A stretch of 64,000 nucleotides of DNA from an uncultured Rhodopila sp. (GTDB lineage: Bacteria; Pseudomonadota; Alphaproteobacteria; Acetobacterales; Acetobacteraceae): the NCBI GenBank assembly GCA_903932145.1, contig CAIZFE010000051.1, forward strand, positions 4,173 to 68,172, written 5' to 3'. Shown here piece by piece: positions 7,846 to 55,927 of the stretch. Below the pieces are notes generated by a model. The model saw nothing but the letters and a program-made list of their open reading frames with translations. It searched no databases and was not told the DNA's origin. The number at the start of each line of letters is the position of its first letter. Within the stretch, counting starts at the first letter, position 1. Both the position numbers and the translations under genes were made by a program.

Positions 7846-9414
7846 TTATGCCTTGCTCACATTCCAGAACGTTGGCGCCGGCCCCTTGCCAGGATCGCTG
7901 ATCGACCGGCTGTAGGCGATGCTCGGACGGTAACGACCGAGCGGAATGAAGGGGACGGAGTCTATGGCGAGGAGTTCGATCTTGCGTTCCAGCCGCGTCA
8001 GTTCCTCCGGGGCTTCGGCGTTCAGCCAGTCGGCATAGGCGGCCTCCATCTGAGGGTTATCCGGCCAGCCGATCCAGGCGTCCTTGCCATTGCCGCGCAA
8101 CAATGAACTGAGTAACGGATCGAGCGATTCCGGCACCGGAGTGACACTGGCGAACAGCGACCAGCCCCCCTTGTTCAGCGGTTCGCGGCTGTTTCGGCGC
8201 TGCAACACTGATCCCCAGTCCATGACCTGATCATAGACATTGACGCCGACCCGCCGCAACGAATCGATCACCACCAACGTCGCCAGATTATAGAACGGCT
8301 GATCGGTCGAGTGCAGCACCGTCAGCGGTTCGCCCTTGTATCCGGCCTCCACGAACATCGATCTTATTTCATCTATCGAGCGTTTGCGGGTGAGTTCCTC
8401 TATCCCCGCGGTATCGACCTCAGGTTTTCCGGTGGCCAGATAGCCGGTGGGCACGACGGCACTGTCCGGATCGCCGCCCATCACCGCGTCCATCACCTCC
8501 CGCTGATCGATCGCCGCCCGAATAGCGCGACGGATTTTCACGTTATCGGTGGGGGCGACCGCGTGATTGGGACGCAACTGGCTGATGACCCCGTAGTCGT
8601 CGATCCGGCCGACCTTAACGTTCGGCGCCGCTCGCAGCACCGGCAGCAGATCGGGCAATGGCATTTCCAGCCAATCGACCTCGCCGGTGATCAGCGCGTT
8701 CGCCGCCGTCGCGGCGTCGGGGATCATTTTCCACTCCATGCGGTCCACCAGCACCTTGTGGCCGCCGGACATGAAGCTGGGCTTTTCATCGCGCGGGACA
8801 TAGCGCTCCCATGGCACCAGAGCGGCGTGGCTGCCGATGACATATTCGTCCATCAGGAAACGGAACGGTCCACTGCCGATCGGTTGCGGCACCGGCTTGA
8901 ACGGGTCGGTGATTGCCATGCGCTCCGGCATCATCACGGCGGCGGTTTGCAGCTTCGACAGCAATTTTGGCAGCGACGGCAGCTTCCGTTTCATCCGCAA
9001 CACGATGGTGCGGTCGTCCACCGCGTCCAGCGAGTCCGCCCGTTGCGACAGCGTGGAGCCGACGGGATCGCGCTGCATCCAGCGGCGCAACGACGCCACA
9101 CAGTCGCGCGCCAGCACCTTCTGGCCGTCATGGAACCACAGGCCGTCGCGCAGGGTCATGGTCCAGCGCTTGCCGTCGTCCTCCACCAGATAACCGGCGA
9201 GCATCTGCGGTTTCGGGTTCATCCACTCGTCGCGACCGAACAGCACGTCGTAGATCTGAAACCCGATATTCCGGGTCGGCATGGAACTGGTCCACATCGG
9301 GTCCAGGCTCGACAACGGCGCTTGTGGCACGAAAATCAGCGTCTTCATGATGCCACCGATCGCCGGTGCAGCCAACATCGCCGCCGCCCCCGTTATCAAC
9401 GTGCGTCTTTTCAT
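7846..9414 (-). CDS. ABC transporter substrate-binding protein, family 5 (peptide/nickel/opine type)
   Basis: 522 aa. N-terminal Tat/Sec-like signal (MKRRTLITGAAAMLAAPA). SBP_bac_5-like length and composition. RBS GAGGAAA upstream of ATG. Confidence 0.8.
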   Translation of the reverse strand: MKRRTLITGAAAMLAAPAIGGIMKTLIFVPQAPLSSLDPMWTSSMPTRNIGFQIYDVLFGRDEWMNPKPQMLAGYLVEDDGKRWTMTLRDGLWFHDGQKVLARDCVASLRRWMQRDPVGSTLSQRADSLDAVDDRTIVLRMKRKLPSLPKLLSKLQTAAVMMPERMAITDPFKPVPQPIGSGPFRFLMDEYVIGSHAALVPWERYVPRDEKPSFMSGGHKVLVDRMEWKMIPDAATAANALITGEVDWLEMPLPDLLPVLRAAPNVKVGRIDDYGVISQLRPNHAVAPTDNVKIRRAIRAAIDQREVMDAVMGGDPDSAVVPTGYLATGKPEVDTAGIEELTRKRSIDEIRSMFVEAGYKGEPLTVLHSTDQPFYNLATLVVIDSLRRVGVNVYDQVMDWGSVLQRRNSREPLNKGGWSLFASVTPVPESLDPLLSSLLRGNGKDAWIGWPDNPQMEAAYADWLNAEAPEELTRLERKIELLAIDSVPFIPLGRYRPSIAYSRSISDPGKGPAPTFWNVSKA

Positions 9415-9550
9415 GTCCCGGTTTCCTCGGTTTTTCTTGGCCGTCCCATTGACCCTACCGCAGCGGCGCGACGGCGCGAAGCCTTACCGGCCTTAAAACC
9501 CTGTCCGCACGGCCTTATGCAGCAGACCCTACATCTGAAACGAGACGATC

Positions 9551-10510
9551 ATGTGGGCGGCGCCCGGGGACGGACTGAATATGCGGGTCCTTTGGACCGA
9601 CACGCCGTATGCAATGCAGCGGGTCGCGGGGCTGTACGAGGCCGGGGACATCAACGATGACGAACGTAACGACCTCGCGCACTTCATCGAGCACGGATGG
9701 CTGCTCTGGCCAGCGGCGATCACCCCCGATCTGATCGACCGTTTTGCCGCCGATATCCGAGGCCACCACGCCCACCCGGGGAAATTTCTCACCACCGATC
9801 ACCGGGCCAACAAGACCGGCCTGAAGCTGTCCGGCAGCAATCCGGATCATTTCGAAAGCTTGTTCGATCTGTACGTAAACTTGCAGTCCTCGCGCGACGT
9901 CTGCCTGCATCCGCGGATATCCCGCTTCCTGTCGTTGGTTTTCGACACCAAACCGGTAGCCTGCCAGCAGCTTCTGTTCCAGATCAGCAATGGCCATCGG
10001 GTGCATCAGGACACCTCGGTCGTCGCGGTGGAGGACCCGATGCTGCTCGCGGCGACGTGGATCGCACTCGAAGATGTACGGGAAGGCAGTGGTGAGCTGG
10101 CATTTTACGACCGCAGCCACAGGCTGCCGCACTATCTCTTCAAGGACGGAACAAAACGAACGAACTTCGCCGAAGACGATCAGACGCTGTATCAGGCCGA
10201 AATGGAAGCTGCGTGCGAGCGGGAGGGAATGGCCTATGATCGTTTCGTGGCGAAGAAGGGCGACGTGTTCTTCTGGACCGCTGATCTGGTGCATCGCAGT
10301 CACCCCGGGACCCTCCCCGAGGGCACCAGCCGGCTATCATGCGTCACGCATTATCACCCGGCGACGACGACGCCATTTTGGTTCCGGCATCATCAGAACC
10401 GCACCAAGGCGATCGATCTCGGGGATCGCGGCGCCTATGTCAGCTTGCACTATACTCTCTCAGAACAGAAAAATGGCATGCTGGTTCCGGTTTCTCCTTA
10501 TCTACGCTGA
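9551..10510 (+). CDS. Phytanoyl-CoA dioxygenase (PhyH) family Fe(II)/2-oxoglutarate-dependent oxygenase
   Basis: 319 aa. HxD...H facial triad candidates (HQDTS ... HRSH). PhyH-like layout. Alternative start at ATG 9581. Confidence 0.7.
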   Translation: MWAAPGDGLNMRVLWTDTPYAMQRVAGLYEAGDINDDERNDLAHFIEHGWLLWPAAITPDLIDRFAADIRGHHAHPGKFLTTDHRANKTGLKLSGSNPDHFESLFDLYVNLQSSRDVCLHPRISRFLSLVFDTKPVACQQLLFQISNGHRVHQDTSVVAVEDPMLLAATWIALEDVREGSGELAFYDRSHRLPHYLFKDGTKRTNFAEDDQTLYQAEMEAACEREGMAYDRFVAKKGDVFFWTADLVHRSHPGTLPEGTSRLSCVTHYHPATTTPFWFRHHQNRTKAIDLGDRGAYVSLHYTLSEQKNGMLVPVSPYLR

Positions 10511-10633
10511 GCGATAGCATCTTGCCGTTCTGCACTATAGTCATCAGCATCCCTGTTCCCGCGCCGCGACAGTTGGCCGTCGCCCCTATCAGGGTTACGA
10601 TCCCTTCAGAAAAACCCGCGGGAGGGAAAATCC

Positions 10634-11821
10634 ATGATCACGCAATTCGACAGCACGTATGCCGGCCATATCGATCTTGAAAACGTTGGCTACGCCGGCA
10701 CACCGGTCAACGACCGGCGCTACCCGAACGAGAAGCTGGCGACGGCACTGCAAAAGGCCGAAATCACCGCCAAAATGCTGGATGGCCTGGGCTACGGCAC
10801 ATTCTGGATGGCCGAACACCACTTCCAGCCGGAAGGCACCGAGTGCATCCCCAACGTCCTGCTGATGGCGTTGCACCTGACCCATCTGACGAAAAACATC
10901 AAACTGGGCTGTGGCTTCAACATCACCCCGATGTGGCATCCTTTGCGCCTCGCCGAGGACTACGCCATGGCCGACATCCTGTCGCACGGCCGCGTGGTGT
11001 TCGGCGTCGGCCGCGGCTATCACACGCGTGAGGTCGAAACGTTCGGCTCGCCGTTGCTGGACCAGCATGCCAACCGGGAACTGTTCGAGGAACAGGTCGA
11101 TATCATCTTCAAGGCTTTTAACAACGAGTCGTTCTCGCACAAAGGCAAGCACTACACCTTGCCGCCGGAAGTGCCGTATCGCGGCTACACCTTGAAGGAC
11201 CTGACGCTGGTGCCGCGGCCGGCGCGCCTGCCGGTGGAATGCTGGCAGCCGATCCAGGGCGGATCGCAGCGGGCGCTCGACTTTATGGCGAAGCACGGCA
11301 TTCAGGGTGTCATCGGTGGCGGATCAGCCGAAGGCGGCATCGTCCACAAGGTGATGGTGGATTTCCAGGCCGCCCACGCCCGCATCGGCAAAGAGGTCGC
11401 CCTGGGCGAACGCCTTGCCATCGGCTTCCAGTTCTTCATTGCCAAAAGCAAGGAGGAAGGCATGCGCGAGGCCGGCAAATACTACGAGGAGAACATGAAG
11501 ATGTTCGGCGAACTGCGCCTGGTGCAGGCCCTGACCGACGCCCAGATCGAGGCGATGCGCGACCCGAAACTGGCGGTCAACACCAAGCTGCCGCGGATCG
11601 AGGATGCGGTGAAAGCCGGCGGTTTCCTGACCGGCACCCCGGCCGACATCATCGAAAGCCTGAAGAAGATCGAGGCGATGTATCCCGGCCTGTCTCGCGT
11701 CACCGTTACCCTGCCGCTGGGCACGCCATTGGCCGTGTGGCTGGAGCAGGTCGAACGGTTCGCCAGGGAAGTGATGCCGGCGTTCGGTGCGGGTCCGAAA
11801 CTGGAACTCGCCGCGAACTGA
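10634..11821 (+). CDS. LLM-class (luciferase-like) flavin-dependent monooxygenase
   Basis: 395 aa. TIM-barrel LLM motifs (FWMAEHHF, GRVVFGVGRGY). Strong RBS GGGAGGG 7 nt upstream. Confidence 0.85.
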   Translation: MITQFDSTYAGHIDLENVGYAGTPVNDRRYPNEKLATALQKAEITAKMLDGLGYGTFWMAEHHFQPEGTECIPNVLLMALHLTHLTKNIKLGCGFNITPMWHPLRLAEDYAMADILSHGRVVFGVGRGYHTREVETFGSPLLDQHANRELFEEQVDIIFKAFNNESFSHKGKHYTLPPEVPYRGYTLKDLTLVPRPARLPVECWQPIQGGSQRALDFMAKHGIQGVIGGGSAEGGIVHKVMVDFQAAHARIGKEVALGERLAIGFQFFIAKSKEEGMREAGKYYEENMKMFGELRLVQALTDAQIEAMRDPKLAVNTKLPRIEDAVKAGGFLTGTPADIIESLKKIEAMYPGLSRVTVTLPLGTPLAVWLEQVERFAREVMPAFGAGPKLELAAN

Positions 11822-41190: not shown

Positions 41191-42000
41191 CTAAGGCGCC
41201 GCGAGGATGCCCCGCATCCGGCGTTCCTGGTCCGCCGCGCGAAACAGGTAGGTCGCCGTCGCCGCATAGCGACCGTGCGGCACATAGCCGCAATTGAGCA
41301 ATAACCCGGCGACCGCCCGGAACGCAGGCGTATCGCCGGCTTCGACGACGATATCGGGCAACCATTGTTCGATCGTGGCTTGCGCCCCGCGCAGCACCGC
41401 GGTCTCGGCGCCTTCCACGTCGATTTTCAGCAACCCGATCGGGCCGGCGATGGCGAGGCTGTCGAGACTTCGCACCGGCACCGAACCGGCGCCGAAGGTC
41501 ACGGCGGTGATACCGAGATTGCCGGGAGGCCCGGGTCGTACCGCGGCGACGCCGTCGCTGTCGCCGATGGCGCAACAGCTCGTCAGCACCTGCCGGTCCA
41601 GGCCGTTTGCGGAAATGTTCATCTGCAACAGGCGGTGGTTCGGTTCAAATTGCTCAAACGCATAGACCGGGCATTCAGGACGGCGCCGAAGAAGATTGCG
41701 TGGTTGCCGATATGGCACCGACATCGATGATCGCGGTGCCGGGCCAATAGATCTCCCGGCATTTCATCAGCACATCCAATTCATAAAATGTGCGATTGGT
41801 GCGGATAATCGCTGCCAGGTGATCGGGGTCCGGGTGCGACCACAGTTCGATCCGGCGGCCCATGAAGGTAAAGATGTGCTGCTGCATGCGGGCAGTATGA
41901 GCGGCAAAAATTAATACTTCATTAACGCCGAAAAATTCCTGCCACGCCGAAAAGACGCTGCGACGATTGACACAAGCCTGCGAAGGTTCGGACGGATCAG
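41191..42000 (-). pseudogene. FkbM-family methyltransferase disrupted by two closely spaced frameshifts
   Basis: N-terminal half (...LDVLMKCREIYWPGTAIIDVGA) in one frame (ORF 41675..42073). The motif continues IGNHAIFFGAVLNA in a second frame. The C-terminal half (PVYAFEQFEP...LKIDVEGAE) is in a third frame (ORF 41191..41724). Two +1 shifts lie within about 60 bp near 41700-41760. Confidence 0.55.
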
Positions 42001-47609: not shown

Positions 47610-47692
47610 CCCGTCATGGCCCGGCTTGGCCGGGCCACCTGTCGCGGCACCGCCAGGTCATAGGTGGCCCGGACAAGCCGGGCCATGACGGG
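47610..47692. repeat. Pair of REP-like 31-bp palindromic elements in inverted orientation (BIME-like)
   Basis: CCCGTCATGGCCCGGCTTGGCCGGGCCACCT (47610-47640) and its near-perfect reverse complement (47662-47692). Each unit is internally palindromic. Related copies at 53653-53682, 55320-55350 and 55432-55460. Confidence 0.8.
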
Positions 47693-47997: not shown

Positions 47998-49167
47998 ATG
48001 ATCCAGGGAGTCCACCGCTATCCGCCAATGGAGCGGGTGATCTACGGCATCCCGCTGGCCGAAGCGCTGGCTGATGAAGTCAAGCGCCTCGACGCGCGCG
48101 CTATTTACGTCATGGCCAGTGGCACCTTGAACCGCGAAACCGATGTGATCGACACCGTCCGCCAAGTGCTGGGCAACCGCATGGCGGGCCTGTGTGCGAA
48201 AATCGGCTCCCACACCCCGCGCATCGACGTCGTGGCGGCGGCGAATGAGGCGCGCGCCGTGAAGGCCGACCTGATCCTGACCGTCGGCGGCGGATCGGTG
48301 ACCGATGCCGCGAAGATGGTCGGGATCTGTCTGGGCAACGATGTCACGGCACCGGAACAGCTTGACCGGTTCAGGGCGGTCATCACCGCCGACGGCAAAT
48401 CCGAACGCCCGCCGCTGAAGCCGCCAGCGCTACGTTCGGTCGATGTGCCCACCACCCTGTCCGCCGGCGAGTTCACCGCGATGGCCGGCTGCACCGACAC
48501 CGTGCGCAACGTGAAAGAAAGCTACGCGCATCCGCTAATGATGCCGCAGGCGGTGATCCTTGATCCGGCGGTCACGATCCACACGCCGGAATGGCTGTTC
48601 CTGTCCACCGGCATCCGCGCGGTGGATCATGCGGTGGAAGATATCTGTTCCATCAACCCGACACCGTTCTCGGACGGGATGTCGTTGCAGGCGTTACGAT
48701 TGCTCTCCTCCGGCCTCCCTGCGGTGAAAGCCAATCCCGGCGATATGGAGGCTCGGTTGAACTGCCAGTTGGGCGCCTGGATGTCGATCATGGGATCGCA
48801 GAACGGCGTCGCCAAAGGCGCCAGCCACGGAATCGGCCATGTGCTCGGTGGCACCGCCCATGTGCCGCATGGCTATACGTCCTGCGTGATGCTGCCACAT
48901 GTCCTGCGGTTCAACGAACCCGTCAACGCCGAACGTCAGAAATGGGTCAGTGAGGCACTCGGCCGTTCCGGTTTGTCCGCGGGCGATGCCGTGGCGGCAC
49001 TGATTGCCAGCCTGGGTCTGCCGGGAACCTTGCGCGATGTCGGGGTCAAACCGGAACAACTCAACGAAATCGCGGTCGGGTCGATGCATGATCGCTGGGT
49101 CCACACCAATCCGAGGAAGATCGACGGACCACCGGCGGTGCGGGCTCTCCTGGACGCGGCGTGGTAG
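47998..49167 (+). CDS. Iron-containing alcohol dehydrogenase family (maleylacetate reductase-like)
   Basis: 389 aa. Fe-ADH GGGS motif (LTVGGGSVTDAAK), His-rich metal site. GGGAGG RBS. Confidence 0.85.
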   Translation: MIQGVHRYPPMERVIYGIPLAEALADEVKRLDARAIYVMASGTLNRETDVIDTVRQVLGNRMAGLCAKIGSHTPRIDVVAAANEARAVKADLILTVGGGSVTDAAKMVGICLGNDVTAPEQLDRFRAVITADGKSERPPLKPPALRSVDVPTTLSAGEFTAMAGCTDTVRNVKESYAHPLMMPQAVILDPAVTIHTPEWLFLSTGIRAVDHAVEDICSINPTPFSDGMSLQALRLLSSGLPAVKANPGDMEARLNCQLGAWMSIMGSQNGVAKGASHGIGHVLGGTAHVPHGYTSCVMLPHVLRFNEPVNAERQKWVSEALGRSGLSAGDAVAALIASLGLPGTLRDVGVKPEQLNEIAVGSMHDRWVHTNPRKIDGPPAVRALLDAAW

Positions 49168-49396
49168 GACGGGGTGCCGGGCGATTCGCTAAGATAGGGG
49201 CGAACGGTCCAAACCATATGGCGCGGCGGACATGCATTGGTTGGTCGCGTATCCAACTGGCACAGCGAGTGCGGCTGGATGGAAAAAGAGGCCTACACAA
49301 TCTGCCAGGGCTACGTTCGGTGTCCGGCCCCTGATCCAAAGGTCAGTCCGCCGACTGAGATTTCTACCCGGTTTCCATCAACAACAGAGGCAAGCG

Positions 49397-49654
49397 ATGG
49401 CATTGCAATTAGGGGCTTTGCGTGACGCATTGGTTGAGGCTGGCGTCAGCGAGGCCAACGCCAAGGCGGCATCGGAAGAAGTCGCCGGTTATGAAAACCG
49501 CCTGACGCGCTTGACAACGATGGTTCAGGCGATGATCGCGATCGGAATGCTGCTGCTGGCATCACAGGGAACGATCTGGCTGGAGCTTGGAAAGCTGAGC
49601 AGTAAGATCGACCAGATCGGCATCAAGATCGACCAGATCGGAGCACGCCGGTGA
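49397..49654 (+). CDS. Small tail-anchored helical protein (DUF1640-like), with a 21-bp tandem duplication at the 3' end
   Basis: 85 aa from ATG 49397 (AGAGG RBS). Hydrophobic segment MVQAMIAIGMLLLA. C-terminal KIDQIG x2 encoded by a tandem 21-bp repeat (49604-49645). Confidence 0.45.
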   Translation: MALQLGALRDALVEAGVSEANAKAASEEVAGYENRLTRLTTMVQAMIAIGMLLLASQGTIWLELGKLSSKIDQIGIKIDQIGARR

Positions 49655-49836
49655 ACACGACCATGAGGTTTCTCTGAATCGCCGCTGGCTTGCCGGGACG
49701 GGCCTCGGTTCCGGGTCACCCAATGCACCAGTTTGGCGCGCCAACAGAAACCCGACAGAGGCCAGCGGACAGGCCAGTTAGCGACATCGCTTGCCGGGCC
49801 TCCCCGCCGGTGTAATAACGTCAGAACAGGACACAG

Positions 49837-52800
49837 CTACACCGGTTCTGAATCTCCATCCGCGTCCAGCAGTTCCGCCACACGGGCGGCCAGAACATGC
49901 GCTTGAATCGGCTTACGCAACAAAGAAAAAGTGCCGCCACCCGCCGTATCGACGGCAATGTCCGCGGCGCTGGTCGAAAAGCCGGTCAGCAGAATCGCCG
50001 GTAAACCCGGCCGGCGCCGCTGCGCCTCCTGGATCAGCGAAACCCCGTCCATGTCCGGCATCGACAGATCAGACACAAGAACATCCACACCCTCGTTGCG
50101 ATCGAGCACAGCCAGGGCGGCTGCGGCGGACTCGACCGCCAGCACAGTGAAGCCCTCTAATTCCATCAGGTCAGAGGTCAGCTCCCGCACAATGCGATCA
50201 TCATCCACCAGTAACAGGCGCCAGCCGGTCGGCCTTGCGGCGGCCAACGCGACATCGACCGGCATCGCATCGCCGGGCGGCACAGACCGGGTGATCGGGA
50301 ACCAAAGTGTAACCGTTGTGCCTTGCCCCAACGTGCTGGCGATATAGAATCCGCCGCCGCTCTGTTCCGCGAAACCGCGCGCCATCGCAAGTCCGAGGCC
50401 GGTGCCCTTGCCGGTTGGCTTCGTGGTGAAGAAAGGTTCCGACGCATGAGCAAGAGTCTCAGCGTTCATTCCCGTCCCGGTATCCGACACCGAAAGGCGG
50501 ACATACAAGCCAGCCGAAAGGCGCCCTTGATGCTCAGCGACCTGGTCGGGCCGGACGATATCTGGTGTCGCCGCCAGGATCAGCGTCCCAATGCCTGACA
50601 TCGCGTCGCGGCCGTTCGTCGCGAGATTGACCAGGACCGTTTCCAATTGTCCTTTGTCGACCAGCACGCGCGGCAGGTCCGGCGCCGGGTCCACAACGAC
50701 CTTCACACCATCGCCAAGCGTGTGCAACAGGATCTCGCGGATATCGGCGAGAAGTGCGGCCGGCTCCACCGGCTCCGCCCGCAGGTCGCCGCGACGCGAG
50801 AAGCCAAGCAGGCGTCGTGTGACAGAGGCTCCACGCTCCGCGGCTTCAAGCATCATGCCAGCCAGATAGCGCACCCCGTCAGCGTCATTCGGGCGCTTCT
50901 CCAACAGCGCGCACCCGGCTTCTACTGCCTGCAAAACGTTGTTGAAATCGTGGGCGATGCCGCCCGCAAGTTGCCCCAGTGCCTCCATCCGCTGCGCCCG
51001 TGCCAGACTTGTCTGGGTGGCTTGCAGGTCCTTGGTCCGCTCCGCGATCAGGCGTTCGAGTTCGTCACGCGACCGCGCCAGGGTTTCACGGGCCGCGACC
51101 GTGTCCTCGATATCAGTGCAGGTGCCAAACCAACGCAGTATCTCTCCAGTTTGCTCGTCACGCACGGCAACCGCGCGACCAAGCATGCATCGATAGCTTC
51201 CGTTGGCCATGCGGAGCCGATATTCGCTTTCGAAGGAATCCCCGGTCGCCAAAGAATGTTGCCAGGCGGCCTGCGCCCGGGACTGATCATCGGGGTGCAA
51301 AACCTTTATCCAGCCGTCGCCCTCGATTTGCTGCCGCGTGGTGCCGGTCAGGTCATACCAACGCTGATTAAAATAGTCGCGAAATCCATCCGGCCGCGCT
51401 GCCCACACCATCTGCGGCAACGCGTCGGTGATCGCGCGAAGTCGCAATTCGCTGTCTCGAAGGGCTGCCTCCGCCTGCTTGCGTTCGGTGATGTCGGCCA
51501 AAACGCCGGCCAATTGGTTGGGCTTTCCGGCTTCGTTGAGGGCGCGTCCCCGCGATTCGATCCAATGGACGCTGCCATCCGGCCAGATAACCCGATACTC
51601 GGCGCGGACATCCCCGCTGGTTTGATTTGCACCCGCGATGGTCAATCTCACGCGCTCACGATCGTCCGGATGAATCATCGAACGGATATGCTCATATGTG
51701 ATCGTCTCGGTGTGACCCAGCCCCAACAGTGCTTTGGTTATTTCCGAGCACCGTACCTCCTTCGTGGCGAGGTTGAGTTCCCACGCCCCCAGGCGGCCGG
51801 CACGCAGGGAGAAACTCAACCGCTCCTCGGTTTCATGATGTGTTGCCTCGGCGGCAAGCTGCTCAGTCAAATCCAGGATAAATCCTGCCGCCTGGCCGCT
51901 GGCCTTACTCGTCAGACTGAAAGACACCAAAACTGGCACAAGGGTGCCGTCCGCTCGCAGGTATTGCTTTTCGTATGGCGTGCACTGGCCGGTTCGCAAT
52001 GCCTCGGCACATGCCGTTTGGTCAGCCTCGACCCATTGGTCCGGCGTCATGTCGGTCCATTTGAACCCGTCACCCGACAGGTCCGCGCGGGTGCGGCCGA
52101 TAATGGCCAAAAATGCGTCGTTGGCCTCATGCACCTGCCCGTCGATGTCGAAAATGATGATGCCGATCGGGCTGTTGTCGATCAGGGCACGGGCATTGCG
52201 GGTGGCCTCCTCGCGTTCGGCAAATGTCTTAACCAGCAACGCCGCGAACGCATCCGCCTCCCTCAAACCGCTTGATGTCATTGGTGTCGCGCTGGTTCCC
52301 CCAATCCGCGCGGCGGTGCCCAGCGCGCTGTCGAAGGCCCTGACGATTCTATGGGCGCCCCTGATCGCCAACATGAGGCCACAGAGGAGTACTGACAGAC
52401 CGATCAGGGCCGACCGCAGGATCGAGTCTCGGAGAGGCGCAAGGAACACCTGCTCGGGCACGTCGATCTTCAGGATGTAACCCGTTTCCGGAGCCCTGGC
52501 GAAGGCAGTGATCGCCGGGACTTTCTCCAGTGTAACAGTGCCGGGCGGTGCGAGACCGGACTGCGAGGCCAGAACCGCGTTCAAGGCGGATGTCACGGGA
52601 GATTGACCGACGGTTTGGGCGTCGTGCAGCGAGCGCGCCACGGTGATGCCTTTCCGATCCAACACCGATGCCGATCCTCCCACCGGGAATCCCGCTTGGT
52701 TGACGATCGCGATCAGGCGTTCCCGCGGGATCGAAATACCGATACCCCCGACCACGGCGGCCCACCCACCGGCTGGCGGCGTTGGCGCAAAAACGGGCAC

Positions 52801-52959
52801 CGCGAGACCCACGGTCAGCGCACCGGAGGTGGGAGCGATAAAAAAGATCAGAGATTTTCGGCACCCCCTCCGCGATCGCTGCCAGGCCGAAAGACGTCGC
52901 ATGCAGTCCGGTTCGCCGTTCGCCCGGTGCCCATGCGGTGTGCAGCAACCAGGCACCAT
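49837..52959 (-). CDS. Hybrid sensor histidine kinase / response regulator (periplasmic Cache-like sensor, 3 PAS, HisKA, HATPase_c, REC); C-terminal 1040 aa of a gene interrupted by a frameshift
   Basis: H-box GGIAHDFNNVLQAV. HATPase G1/G2 boxes (DTGTGM; GTGLGLAMARGF). REC (LLLVDDDRIVREL...VSDLSMPDMDGV). PAS repeats. The N-terminal continuation is in another frame. Confidence 0.85.
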   Translation of the reverse strand: MVPGCCTPHGHRANGEPDCMRRLSAWQRSRRGCRKSLIFFIAPTSGALTVGLAVPVFAPTPPAGGWAAVVGGIGISIPRERLIAIVNQAGFPVGGSASVLDRKGITVARSLHDAQTVGQSPVTSALNAVLASQSGLAPPGTVTLEKVPAITAFARAPETGYILKIDVPEQVFLAPLRDSILRSALIGLSVLLCGLMLAIRGAHRIVRAFDSALGTAARIGGTSATPMTSSGLREADAFAALLVKTFAEREEATRNARALIDNSPIGIIIFDIDGQVHEANDAFLAIIGRTRADLSGDGFKWTDMTPDQWVEADQTACAEALRTGQCTPYEKQYLRADGTLVPVLVSFSLTSKASGQAAGFILDLTEQLAAEATHHETEERLSFSLRAGRLGAWELNLATKEVRCSEITKALLGLGHTETITYEHIRSMIHPDDRERVRLTIAGANQTSGDVRAEYRVIWPDGSVHWIESRGRALNEAGKPNQLAGVLADITERKQAEAALRDSELRLRAITDALPQMVWAARPDGFRDYFNQRWYDLTGTTRQQIEGDGWIKVLHPDDQSRAQAAWQHSLATGDSFESEYRLRMANGSYRCMLGRAVAVRDEQTGEILRWFGTCTDIEDTVAARETLARSRDELERLIAERTKDLQATQTSLARAQRMEALGQLAGGIAHDFNNVLQAVEAGCALLEKRPNDADGVRYLAGMMLEAAERGASVTRRLLGFSRRGDLRAEPVEPAALLADIREILLHTLGDGVKVVVDPAPDLPRVLVDKGQLETVLVNLATNGRDAMSGIGTLILAATPDIVRPDQVAEHQGRLSAGLYVRLSVSDTGTGMNAETLAHASEPFFTTKPTGKGTGLGLAMARGFAEQSGGGFYIASTLGQGTTVTLWFPITRSVPPGDAMPVDVALAAARPTGWRLLLVDDDRIVRELTSDLMELEGFTVLAVESAAAALAVLDRNEGVDVLVSDLSMPDMDGVSLIQEAQRRRPGLPAILLTGFSTSAADIAVDTAGGGTFSLLRKPIQAHVLAARVAELLDADGDSEPV

Positions 52960-53305
52960 CAGCGCCTATGAAGCTCAATACCGGACGGGGTGCTCCCGGC
53001 GGCAAGTCCACTGAAAGACGGTCGCGTGCCGCGCGTAGCTGCGCTTCAAATGCGTTCAGGTCACTGCCGGCCGCGGGGGCTGCTGCCGCCAGGGTCTGGG
53101 CGACGGCCCGGGTGCGTTCAAACTCACGATCCACCAGTAATGCGACGGTCCGCGCATGTTCGACCAATTGCGTTTCGGCGGCCGACCGCTGGCTCTGGTA
53201 TTGCCACCAGAGCGCTCCCGCGCCCAGCAGCATGAGCGGCAACGCAACAACCGCGACGAGGGCGACCAGACTGCCGGTGAGTGACACGCCCGATCGGCGA
53301 AACAC
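52841..53305 (-). other. N-terminal fragment of the same histidine kinase (TM1 + start of Cache-like sensor), displaced by a frameshift in a poly-T run near 52845
   Basis: Frame of ORF 52349..53572 encodes VFRRSGVSLTGSLVALVAVVALPLMLLGAGALWWQYQ...HTAWAPGE...LAAIAEGVPKISDLF. It then switches frame within cttttttat (52841-52849) to ...LIFFIAPTSGALTVGLAVP... of the main ORF. Putative GTG start 53305. Confidence 0.5.
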
Positions 53306-53781
53306 TGGAGCGCCCGATCCGAAATTCCCGAAGAGAGCAGCCAAACGGCTCCCTACTGGTCGTCGTGCGAATACGGCTTTCCAGTTGCCTGACCTTGGCG
53401 AGGGTACGAACGCCGGGTGAGTCCCGGCCTTTGGATCCGCCGCTGCGAAACCTTCGTGCCCTGAACCGCTCTTATTCGCCCGGGGATGCCCCATGATTTT
53501 GAAGTCATGCGCTTTCCATGCCAAAACGACAAGGCAATTCCAATTATCAATCAATCTGAGAAAATTGCTCAAACTTTGTCACAAAATGATAAAATTGGTT
53601 CCTATCGTGTTATGCCAATCGGCGATGACATTGACTGACGGCCGTTCCACAGCGTTATGGCCAGGCTTGTCCGGGCCATGACACGATGGGCAATATTTCG
53701 ACTGTAAACCGGTTGGTATTATCCGACATTCCCGTCCACCGCTGGTGGACGGGACGCATGCGAAACGGGTGCGGCGACACG

Positions 53782-54420
53782 TCACCCCGGTTTTGAACCT
53801 GTCAACAAGTGTCCGGGAATGCTGGTCGCCAGATTGTTCTGTGCGTTGGCGAGAATTGCATTCTTGGTATTGCTGCCAATACTGGAACCCAACCAGTAGT
53901 TGGCGACCTGTGTCGCCATCGCGGCGAGTGTCCCAACCAGGATAGAGCCGAACTGGCCGTCGGTCGCACTCAGATGGCTGGTCAGCACGGAATACGTCGT
54001 CCAACCAAACGCCGCGATGATCACGACAGAAACGACCACGCTGCCATAGGCCAGCCCACTATGGGCTTTCGCCAGTTCGGTCGCCATGTCACGCGCCGAT
54101 CCGGTATCGCCCAAACGGGCTTTCAGTTCGTCCAACGCATCTTTGCGAAGCTCATCGGCCTCGGCATCCTGCTCTTTCTGCATTTGCAAATGCAGATCGG
54201 TGAGTTTTGCAGCGAGATCGTTAGCAACCTGCGGATTAGTCTGGATATGGGCGACCGCCGCGGCGGCACCACCGGGTGCACTGAGGTCGGCGACCGCCCC
54301 GACAACGGTCTGGACGACGCCAGCCACTTTCGCGGTGGCATCGGCGCCTTTCGATCCGAAGATCATGCCGGCGAGTTGCGGTGCCAAACTCAGCACCATG
54401 GGGATCAAGAGTGCAAACAT
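53782..54420 (-). CDS. 3-TM holin of the GTA/prophage type (holin of 3TMs for gene-transfer release)
   Basis: 212 aa. N-terminal MFALLIPMVLSLAPQLAGMIFG. Central coiled-coil-like region, C-terminal TM helices. Directly downstream of the endolysin gene. Confidence 0.55.
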   Translation of the reverse strand: MFALLIPMVLSLAPQLAGMIFGSKGADATAKVAGVVQTVVGAVADLSAPGGAAAAVAHIQTNPQVANDLAAKLTDLHLQMQKEQDAEADELRKDALDELKARLGDTGSARDMATELAKAHSGLAYGSVVVSVVIIAAFGWTTYSVLTSHLSATDGQFGSILVGTLAAMATQVANYWLGSSIGSNTKNAILANAQNNLATSIPGHLLTGSKPG

Positions 54421-54421
54421 A

Positions 54422-55228
54422 CTAAGCTCCTAATGCATGCAGCGCGGCCTCGCACAGGCGGTTTCGCTCCGCCGCGCCGTTCGTGCCGCCGTTGATTTTG
54501 CGGGTAATGAGATCGAGCGACCAGGAATTGGCCAGAGTGTTCAATTGGTTGGCGGTCCAGAACCAGGCCGCGCTATCGGCGGCTCCGTCGCGGGTGGCGG
54601 CGTGCTGCACTGCCTGATCCAAAGTCATGGCCATGGAGGTCGAAAAATGTTCGTAGGCGGATCGGCCGGTGATCTGGATCAGTCCACGACCGCGAAACCG
54701 CCAGCCGTCGCCGGAGGCCTCGTTACCGTTGCCCATGCGATCGGCATAGACCCGGTTGGCGAGCGCTTCGGGCTTCAATGCGCACGGTTCCGCTGCTTCG
54801 GTGCTGGGGAACCGGCCGGGCCAAACCTGACACAGTCGTGCCGCGCTGTAGCTGAGGTCTTCCTCCAGTTCGCGGAAGCCGCCGCTTTCGAACGCGCACT
54901 GCCCCAGGAAGGCCGCAACGCAGCGTGGTCCGGTGATACCGGCCTTGCGCAACGGTTCTGCCAGGGAAGCGACCCAGGCGGCACGTTCCTCGGCGGCGAG
55001 ATGCGGGGCCACCGCGCGCATTGCCTGATCGAGGCGATCCCCGGACGCGGGCGGCGGTATTGTGGTCAGCAGCGTGACAGCGGCGGCGACGGCTGGATCG
55101 GGTGAGGGCTGCTGAAACAGTGTTTCGTAGATGTTTGATGAGGCGGACACAGAGGGGGCCTTCAAATGAAGTGCTGGAATGCAACCGTTACGGCTCGTCC
55201 TGGTTCGGGTTGTCCGTATGGGCATCAA
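54422..55228 (-). CDS. Glycoside hydrolase family 19-like lysozyme (endolysin)
   Basis: GH19/chitinase-like catalytic motifs (AAFLGQCAFESGGF...YSAARL; GDGWRFRGRGLIQITGR.AY). Alternative internal start ATG 55021 (MRAVAPHL...). Confidence 0.7.
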   Translation of the reverse strand: MMPIRTTRTRTSRNGCIPALHLKAPSVSASSNIYETLFQQPSPDPAVAAAVTLLTTIPPPASGDRLDQAMRAVAPHLAAEERAAWVASLAEPLRKAGITGPRCVAAFLGQCAFESGGFRELEEDLSYSAARLCQVWPGRFPSTEAAEPCALKPEALANRVYADRMGNGNEASGDGWRFRGRGLIQITGRSAYEHFSTSMAMTLDQAVQHAATRDGAADSAAWFWTANQLNTLANSWSLDLITRKINGGTNGAAERNRLCEAALHALGA

Positions 55229-55576
55229 ATTAGGCAGCGGATGGAGATAAATTTCTTATTTATCATCACCAGATTTGGTCCGGCCACCCGGGACTTTGCT
55301 TGGGCAGGGCAGCAAGTCGTGGGTGACCGGGCCAAGCCCGGTCATGACGGAGAGGAAAAAGCAGCGTCCGGAGAGTCTCTGCCCACCGCTCAATACCAAT
55401 GGCCGTCGAGCCCGAACCTCGCCCCTCATCCTCCTGGCCCGGCTAGTCCGGGCCACGACGAAATTAAAATATAGTCAAATCGAACATACTCTATTGAAGC
55501 GGCCAAAAATACAATGTGAATAAAATCACAAAACGCGACCAATGTCAACTCATTTTCGAAACTTCGCCATCCCGTG

Positions 55577-55927
55577 TCAGAACATCTCCTCACCATGGTG
55601 GCGATCCGCGTCGGGAAAATCCCGGTACAGCCCGAAAATCGCATTATGAACCAGGCTGTTAACGCCGTGATGGACGGACTCCGCCGGCTCCCGTCGCGAA
55701 GCCACATGGTGAAACGCTCGGTCGAGCTGCGCCATGTCCTTGGTTTCTATGACGATGTGGAACTCGCCGAGACCGGGCGGACCCAAACCGAGCTTGCGGC
55801 GTGTCAACCGCCAGTCCTCGATCAGGCCTTGGTGCTTGAGGTGGCTCATATAGGCGGCCACCTTGTCGGCAAATTGCAGATCCCCGGTGCCGGGCTTCAG
55901 GTCGCACCAGATATGATACAAATCCAT
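55577..55927 (-). CDS. Hypothetical protein (about 117 aa)
   Basis: Conserved-looking C-terminal part of ORF 55577..56353 (MDLYHIWCDLKPGTGDLQFADKVAAYM...). The upstream part of that ORF is Arg-rich junk overlapping the next gene. Confidence 0.35.
   Translation of the reverse strand: MDLYHIWCDLKPGTGDLQFADKVAAYMSHLKHQGLIEDWRLTRRKLGLGPPGLGEFHIVIETKDMAQLDRAFHHVASRREPAESVHHGVNSLVHNAIFGLYRDFPDADRHHGEEMF

Follow-up and report, generated by a model that had tools for sequence, protein, structure and literature searches.

Here we describe a pair of adjacent genes in a 64-kb stretch of DNA (hereafter the window) from an uncultured Rhodopila species of the Acetobacteraceae. On the minus strand, a gene for a 242-aa GH19 phage-type endolysin (54422..55150) is followed 1 nt later by a gene for a 212-aa holin-like membrane protein of family phrog_1544 (53782..54420), and the two apparently make up a stand-alone, domesticated endolysin and membrane-protein cassette. 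The interpretation that we favor, and hold with somewhat more conviction than doubt, is that this phage-derived pair carries out the regulated holin-endolysin lysis of some cells. A preliminary description of the same DNA, drawn up from its letters alone, had recognized a stand-alone lysis module in these genes, a view that the synteny, purifying selection and dedicated promoter reported below bear out, and had further proposed that the module belongs to a gene transfer agent (GTA), a label that we reject on the grounds of protein family, endolysin type, the CtrA box and the conservation of the neighboring kinase.

The cassette is not part of a prophage, because no family named as a phage structural, terminase, portal or integrase family lies nearby and because its flanks in same-species contigs are metabolic. 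None of the 47 other open reading frames (ORFs) of the window matched a PHROG family named as structural, terminase, portal or integrase at E<=1e-5, in agreement with the preliminary description, which had reported no phage structural genes here. Nor did the adjacent prophage whose possible presence it had raised come to light: within +/-10 kb of the cassette in same-species contigs there are no phage genes, only metabolic ones. Four such contigs (94.4% nucleotide identity) keep the gene order of the window, namely MFS transporter, amidase, asparaginase, methyltransferase, DUF6614, GH19, membrane protein, hybrid kinase and, on the opposite strand, Fe-ADH, with further metabolic genes beyond this block. 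The GC content of the window is 62.5% and no compositional island is apparent.

We then looked for the pair across the clade, taking one genome per species, and found 31 Rhodopila/Acetobacteraceae loci at which a GH19 gene stands directly upstream of a membrane-protein homolog, the gap between the two being at most about 8 nt. Among the carriers of the pair are the complete genomes OZ241370.1, NZ_OZ255846.1, CBDIBO010000003.1 and CBDIDA010000001.1. About 12 of the 31 also share the upstream amidase-asparaginase-(methyltransferase) synteny of the window. The downstream side varies; most orthologous loci have a convergent TPR/glycosyltransferase-like gene there, which in many of them begins within a few bases of the pair, and at the closest locus, L001, the Fe-ADH gene comes immediately after the cassette. 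We considered the TPR/glycosyltransferase gene as a partner of the pair and discarded it, as it is missing from the window and a gene at locus L064 is similar only weakly (28% identity over 184 residues). Both cassette genes are intact in 22 of 22 orthologous loci whose GH19 match escapes truncation at a contig end, and across the orthologous loci the endolysin is less conserved than the membrane protein. When computed against a same-species contig, dN/dS was 0.071 for the GH19 gene and 0.087 for the membrane-protein gene, values that compare with 0.03-0.25 for the metabolic neighbors. Together, the orthologous loci, the conserved synteny and the low dN/dS indicate that the pair is vertically inherited and under purifying selection, and domestication is supported by the conserved upstream synteny, by dN/dS values of 0.07-0.09 and by a promoter that is conserved in 22 loci.

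The minus-strand ORF of the endolysin is open over 54422-55228, up to a TTG at 55228. Because its orthologs are mostly 242 aa long and the GTG at 55150 aligns with their ATG, we place the start most likely at this GTG and not at the TTG. The TAG stop codon occupies 54424-54422 and the ATG of the membrane-protein gene lies at 54420, so that the 1-nt gap given in the preliminary description holds, as do both ORFs and the motifs quoted for the enzyme, AAFLGQCAFESGGF and GDGWRFRGRGLIQITG. Assignment as a phage-type endolysin follows from a match to PHROG endolysin family 181 at 3e-65 and from matches to the solved endolysins PWe1 (9ms6, 5e-42) and 4ok7 (1e-24); the Pfam GH19 model (PF00182) scores 19.6 bits against a gathering cut-off of 25.5 and is thus sub-threshold, and a precomputed PF00182 label is present on many of the orthologs. 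Glu88 and Glu97, the presumed catalytic pair of this GH19 enzyme, are invariant among 16 orthologs and align to Glu in 9ms6, and the GRGLIQITG and WFW motifs are likewise invariant among the orthologs. Inspection alone, with no prediction tool run, revealed no signal peptide. An N-terminal extension of about 40 aa, conserved among the GH19 orthologs, includes a short hydrophobic patch of about 11 residues, and close homologs of the enzyme in Rhodopila/Acetobacteraceae metagenome bins are 68-97% identical to it. Two of four same-species environmental contigs (L052 9271-9999 and L055 6850-7578) carry a nonsense codon in place of the invariant Trp196 (W196*) and in both of these the membrane-protein gene is intact. 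From these contigs it follows that a loss-of-function allele of the endolysin segregates in nature.

The product of the second gene has one strongly hydrophobic segment (residues ~124-146, with hydropathy peaking at 2.3 over residues 131-145) along with two that are weaker, at 1-20 and 158-177. AlphaFold2 predicts helices throughout (pLDDT 91.9), the middle of the protein being an acidic helical domain of about 100 residues, and the C-terminal tail of the family, which begins with a near-invariant WLGSSxGSxxK, is net-positive (mean charges +3.5 and -1.8). A GGAG for this gene lies at 54427-54430, within the end of the endolysin gene, and translation of the membrane protein is probably coupled to that of the endolysin. 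The protein matches phrog_1544 at E=5e-12 (residues 5-191 aligned to positions 6-193 of the 200 in the profile), a profile that 90 of 91 diverse relatives also match, and an exhaustive search put the family at 631 representative clusters at 50% identity. Close homologs number in the hundreds in Rhodopila/Acetobacteraceae metagenome bins, at 79-96% identity.

Direct annotation of this protein yields little. phrog_1544 has no Pfam or NCBIfam model and is annotated as unknown function in PHROGs, and none of ten members that we looked up has an informative name. Searches of Pfam and NCBIfam with the 212-aa protein returned a sub-threshold "Sensor" match alone, a PDB profile search returned no match, a fold search against BFVD returned one unnamed weak match, and PADLOC has no defense-system model for either cassette gene. 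A tblastn search with the window protein against 50,697 phage records found no match; Synechococcus phage MinM1 was found when a phage-contig homolog was used as the query instead.

The genomic company of the family is more telling. In IMG/VR phage contigs, tail-fiber genes and a small membrane ORF are followed by a phrog_1544 member and then by a GH24 lysozyme or a Tlde1/YkuD peptidase; in MinM1 the phrog_1544 gene overlaps an M15 peptidase gene beside the integrase; and in other contigs it adjoins a GH108 or PF11860 muramidase or sits between tail genes and an integrase. Moreover, nine of ten long family members (P0274, P0297, P0299, P0313, P0321, P0333, P0340, P0357 and P0389) are natural fusions to GH108+PG_binding_3, SLT or Amidase_2, one of which is identical across several assemblies. 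GH108+PG_binding_3 occurs at either end of these proteins, SLT at the C-terminus and Amidase_2 at the N-terminus, and fusions at both ends seem hard to reconcile with a three-span topology. In all, eight kinds of hydrolase lie beside or are fused to the family, namely GH19, GH24, GH108, PF11860, M15, Tlde1/YkuD, SLT and Amidase_2. Because the membrane protein stays constant as its hydrolase partner changes among eight kinds, we propose a holin-like role for it; the protein also has the hydrophobic helices and charged C-terminal tail of the holin class, and its gene adjoins that of an endolysin. By analogy, the phrog_1544 protein would thus act either as a holin or in close partnership with endolysins. 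One 100-kb IMG/VR contig, L046, carries a GH19 and phrog_1544 pair at 9388-10654 (62% and 56% identity) that adjoins a DUF7694 gene and a 2434-aa ORF, and this contig may be a mobile element with the same cassette.

We next examined the DNA upstream of the pair. The upstream regions of the orthologous loci cannot be aligned apart from one block, gAAttatCTTGAC(A/T)-N14-T(A/G)TGAtTtTATTC(C/T)(C/T)A, of which 22 loci each have a single copy, in every case upstream of GH19, and which has an exact match in the window at 55518-55548. The block contains a -35 element TTGACA (55543..55548, minus strand), of which TTGAC is invariant, placed exactly 17 nt upstream of a putative -10 hexamer TTTTAT (55520-55525, minus strand) in the window and in the 22 orthologous loci, with a spacer that ends in TG. 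A generic sigma-70 scan misses this conserved promoter, as the scan demands that the second base of the -10 hexamer be A. Bracketing the putative -10 is the inverted repeat TGTGA-TTTTAT-TCACA (55515..55530, minus strand), a candidate operator of CRP/FNR type. In the window the TGTGA-N6-TCACA repeat is perfect and is the sole site with <=1 mismatch in 64 kb; in the orthologous loci the first half-site reads T(A/G)TGA and the second TC(C/T)(C/T)A. Overall, this arrangement suggests a strong housekeeping-type promoter with a Crp/Fnr-type dimer operator across its -10, to which a protein of that type would bind, and both cassette genes are probably carried on one transcript.

Building on the observed gene identities, family context, vertical inheritance, purifying selection and promoter conservation, we infer the following mechanism. 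The sigma-70-type promoter (TTGACA, 17 nt, TTTTAT) would drive a bicistronic mRNA whose first product, the GH19 muramidase, would accumulate in the cytoplasm because no export signal is seen on inspection. The second product, the coupled phrog_1544 helical membrane protein, would then breach the inner membrane or otherwise give the enzyme access to the periplasm, a holin-like step that we propose by analogy with holins, whereupon murein would be cut and the cell would lyse. A Crp/Fnr-type protein on TGTGA-N6-TCACA would silence the otherwise strong promoter until some signal relieves it, probably in part of the population only, and the cargo freed by lysis, whether particles, DNA, vesicles or proteins, would be one that is not encoded nearby.

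Several points weigh against this mechanism. The endolysin is interrupted at Trp196 in two of the four same-species contigs and must therefore be dispensable in some cells at least. Holin function is something that we infer for every member of phrog_1544; a length of 212 aa together with an acidic helical domain of ~100 residues exceeds typical holin size, and the natural hydrolase fusions are as compatible with a membrane anchor or a regulator as with a protein that forms holes. If the cassette is lethal, its near-consensus promoter must be tightly controlled, and this control is deduced rather than observed: in other species the second half of the repeat departs from a perfect match, and neither the window nor the orthologous flanks contain a Crp-family gene. 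Lastly, the pair is not followed by a spanin gene.

Some of these difficulties would ease if the pair had a non-lethal role, either in export akin to type 10 secretion or in wall remodeling with the 212-aa protein tethering, activating or gating the muramidase, and we regard this as the strongest of the alternatives, though a distinctly less probable one than regulated lysis. Strong purifying selection and a near-consensus promoter are easier to understand if expression is harmless, the GH108, SLT and Amidase_2 fusions suggest a tether, and pairs of holin and hydrolase are reported to release proteins without lysis or when a specialized subpopulation lyses (PMC9527704, PMC10847048). Set against this, no chitinase or toxin cargo gene is linked to the pair in the orthologous loci, whose flanks are metabolic and, on the downstream side, variable; the home context of the family is the phage lysis cassette; and phage endolysins are the closest matches of the GH19 enzyme.

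Less probable again, and in our estimation doubtful, is that the 212-aa protein is an accessory lysis protein (an antiholin, a releasin-like protein or an endolysin-docking factor) and that the GH19 enzyme crosses the membrane by other means. The size and long acidic helical domain of the protein, atypical for holins, speak for such a role, and the family member is preceded, in phage contigs, by a second small ORF (membrane or coiled-coil) that could be the true holin. In the chromosomal cassettes, however, only two genes are conserved, and in many loci the convergent neighbor leaves no room for another. The ~40-aa N-terminal extension of GH19 could mediate membrane association through its hydrophobic patch, but at ~11 residues this patch is too short for a membrane span.

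That the pair is an RcGTA-like lysis module, RcGTA being the GTA of Rhodobacter capsulatus, under a CckA/CtrA-type phosphorelay acting via the neighboring hybrid kinase, as the preliminary description had suggested, now appears very improbable. The idea had merit at the level of layout: rcc00555/rcc00556 of RcGTA are likewise a coupled endolysin-then-membrane-protein pair that is unlinked from the structural genes and syntenic within its clade, and the kinase next to the window pair has the PAS, HisKA, HATPase and receiver domains of a hybrid kinase. Yet both genes fall outside the families of the RcGTA pair. The Pfam model of the three-transmembrane GTA-release holin to which the 212-aa protein had been likened, PF11351 (GTA_holin_3TM), gives no match to it even at E<=10 and matches none of 91 diverse phrog_1544 relatives at E<=0.01. 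A PF11351-like query retrieved 7080 proteins; all 120 of those listed have a precomputed PF11351 label, one of them from R. capsulatus (P0475). An hhalign comparison of our 91-sequence family alignment with 32 verified PF11351 proteins, P0475 included, gave a probability of 0.73% over 10 columns, and BLASTP against P0475 gave E=32. The ten columns correspond to the end of the last helix (TQVANYWLGS versus GAIVGFYFGA), a superficial resemblance that was probably behind the original GTA-holin call.

At the R. capsulatus locus itself (L067) the gene order is CcmE, GH108+PG_binding_3, PF11351, so that, judged by these assignments, both window genes differ in family from the R. capsulatus pair. Nor is the RcGTA endolysin a PF11860 enzyme, since this locus shows GH108. 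The CtrA box that had been anticipated upstream of the pair is not there: TTAA-N7-TTAA is absent within 13 kb of the cassette and from the promoter consensus, and the sole full copy in the window lies at 41911-41925, amid sequence that has few ORFs with the codon bias required of likely genes. Large RcGTA-like clusters are reported from five other orders, and in Rhodospirillales only small scattered clusters of RcGTA homologs are (PMC5721377); furthermore, among GTA genes the RcGTA holin is one of the fastest to evolve (PMC5026251), whereas in the window pair the membrane protein is the more conserved of the two.

The proposed His-Asp control by the neighboring kinase finds no support either. 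The kinase is beside the cassette in this species only, being absent from 31 of 31 other orthologous loci, and its position there is incidental. It also has a Cache sensor domain, which CckA is not known to have. In the window the kinase gene (49837 to ~53431, minus strand) carries a one-base T insertion at 52845, a +1 frameshift relative to four intact same-species copies of 1197-1228 aa, which leaves the N-terminal transmembrane and Cache half in another frame (ORF 52349-53572); the frameshift may reflect either a pseudogene or a sequencing error.

Least credible of all is the idea that the pair has lost its function and is what remains of a decaying prophage, for although the family sits at the prophage end by the integrase in phages, such that a deletion could leave just these genes, and although a GH19 nonsense allele segregates in the species, the two genes show dN/dS of 0.07-0.09, are intact in all 22 loci where this can be judged, retain their promoter and coupling, and keep invariant catalytic residues.

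The same clade contains a second stand-alone pair outside the window (loci L032-L045), in which a GH108+PG_binding_3 endolysin gene overlaps and precedes the gene of a phrog_1544 paralog (34-39% identical), in non-phage surroundings. The GH19 and GH108 pairs co-occur in at least one genome (L002 and L038). The region upstream of the GH108 pair is unrelated to that of the GH19 pair; 13 of 14 GH108 loci have a conserved GTG-N8-CAC, a TGTGA-N6-TCACA-like palindrome, 72-96 nt before the start, and at L038 a gene for a Crp/Fnr-family regulator lies immediately upstream of the pair. The GH108 endolysin is of the same family as that of RcGTA, with 33% identity over 128 residues.

Returning to the window, its promoter stands ~360 nt before the endolysin start, compared with ~100 nt in most orthologous loci, because REP-like (repetitive extragenic palindrome-like) palindromes sit within the leader. 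The long 5' leader (55151..55514, minus strand, about 360 nt, with a transcription start predicted from the promoter to lie near 55510) holds three palindromes: a REP-like copy at 55435-55455, a second palindrome at 55324-55344 and an AT-rich perfect inverted repeat, GATAAAT-N5-ATTTATC, at 55246-55264, about 95 nt upstream of the GH19 start. The last of these stands where other species have the promoter and its surrounding sequence is loosely promoter-like, and this region may be a decayed second promoter copy. Rfam returned a chance-level miRNA match alone on 53300-55700, and RNAalifold found no consensus structure among 18 shorter ortholog leaders; small GC hairpins near the start codons, which we had considered, are unsupported by RNAalifold.

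The REP-like family, TGGCCCGG-AC(A/T)AG-CC(G/T)GGCCA, has four copies in the window versus 0 expected by chance. Two flank the cassette, the one at 55435-55455 and, downstream on the minus strand, TGGCCCGGACAAGCCTGGCCA at 53658..53678, and two lie between an OmpA-domain gene and the Fe-ADH gene (47617-47637 and 47665-47685). The upstream spacer had been called REP-rich; it contains one REP-like copy and another palindrome, and the metabolic genes said to lie beyond it are indeed there. In this species only, a DUF6614 gene (55577-55927) stands between the methyltransferase gene and the cassette promoter; in other species the promoter directly follows the methyltransferase or the asparaginase gene. 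Downstream, a perfect 11-bp GC-rich hairpin (53730..53754, minus strand) begins 28 nt past the membrane-protein stop; it has no clear T run and was not flagged by a pattern scan, and may nonetheless serve as a terminator. The spacer between the cassette and the kinase, earlier put at 476 bp and AT-rich, does have a lower GC content (0.53 vs 0.625), while its length comes to ~350 bp with the start called in same-species contigs. On the far side of the kinase, 634 bp (49166-49799) separate the Fe-ADH gene from the kinase gene end, in place of 126 bp in same-species contigs.

Host-kept lysis cassettes set when a fraction of a population dies, releasing particles, DNA, vesicles or toxins, and here such a cassette is kept under strong selection in a clade without a known GTA. 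The part of this work most worth following up is phrog_1544, a widespread candidate for a new holin family. The TGTGA-N6-TCACA repeat across the -10 offers a testable operator, and the natural nonsense polymorphism of the endolysin could be used to study cheater dynamics. As a more speculative and rather unlikely extension, the two domesticated phrog_1544 cassettes (GH19 and GH108), maybe with Crp/Fnr-type operators, might together represent host-controlled programmed lysis that releases an unrecognized cargo such as a new particle, DNA or vesicles; phrog_1544 would in that case be a large undescribed holin family, with members that can also act as single-chain holin-endolysin fusions. A further lesson is that an endolysin plus three-helix-protein layout is by itself insufficient for a GTA-module label.

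How, then, does the window cassette compare with known systems? The paralogous GH108 cassette is likewise stand-alone and non-prophage, with a TGTGA-N6-TCACA-like palindrome upstream, and differs in endolysin family, in upstream sequence and in the Crp/Fnr gene adjacent to it at L038. Type 10 secretion and other domesticated lysis cassettes lie beside cargo or particle genes, usually with spanins. The window pair has no linked cargo, particle or spanin gene and belongs to a different, uncharacterized holin-like family; in place of a chitinase or toxin cargo, its neighbors are amidase, asparaginase, methyltransferase, DUF6614, kinase and Fe-ADH genes. Like the window pair, these systems are chromosomal holin and peptidoglycan-hydrolase genes, phage-derived and kept by their hosts, that release material, often from a subpopulation (PMC9527704, PMC10847048, PMC4834629), and systems of this kind include Serratia ChiWXYZ, Yersinia Tc toxin release, the Pseudomonas pyocin lysis genes and explosive cell lysis.

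The cassettes of phages (MinM1, ON981384; IMG/VR contigs L047-L050) resemble the window pair in that phrog_1544 stands beside an endolysin with the genes overlapping or nearly so. They differ in their place at the end of a late operon by tail genes, with an integrase adjacent in MinM1 and in prophage L066, in gene order, which is mostly membrane protein then endolysin, and in enzyme type, whereas the window pair has no phage genes around it, puts the endolysin first and has its own conserved promoter. As for RcGTA, its cassette differs in that the endolysin is GH108+PG_binding_3 there and GH19 here, the membrane protein is PF11351 there and phrog_1544 here, with homology undetectable, and it is fast-evolving there and slow-evolving here (PMC5026251); in addition, no CtrA box accompanies the window cassette, and the reported distribution of large RcGTA-like clusters does not extend to the window's host clade (PMC5721377). 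The likenesses lie in a tightly coupled endolysin-then-membrane-protein unit (the genes overlap in L067), in a locus alone among housekeeping genes, far from capsid genes and syntenic within the host clade (PMC5026251), and in a membrane protein with a Gly/Ala-rich N-terminus, a helical middle, two C-terminal hydrophobic helices and an aromatic-aromatic-x-G end. The stand-alone syntenic layout of the window cassette parallels that of RcGTA in organization only.

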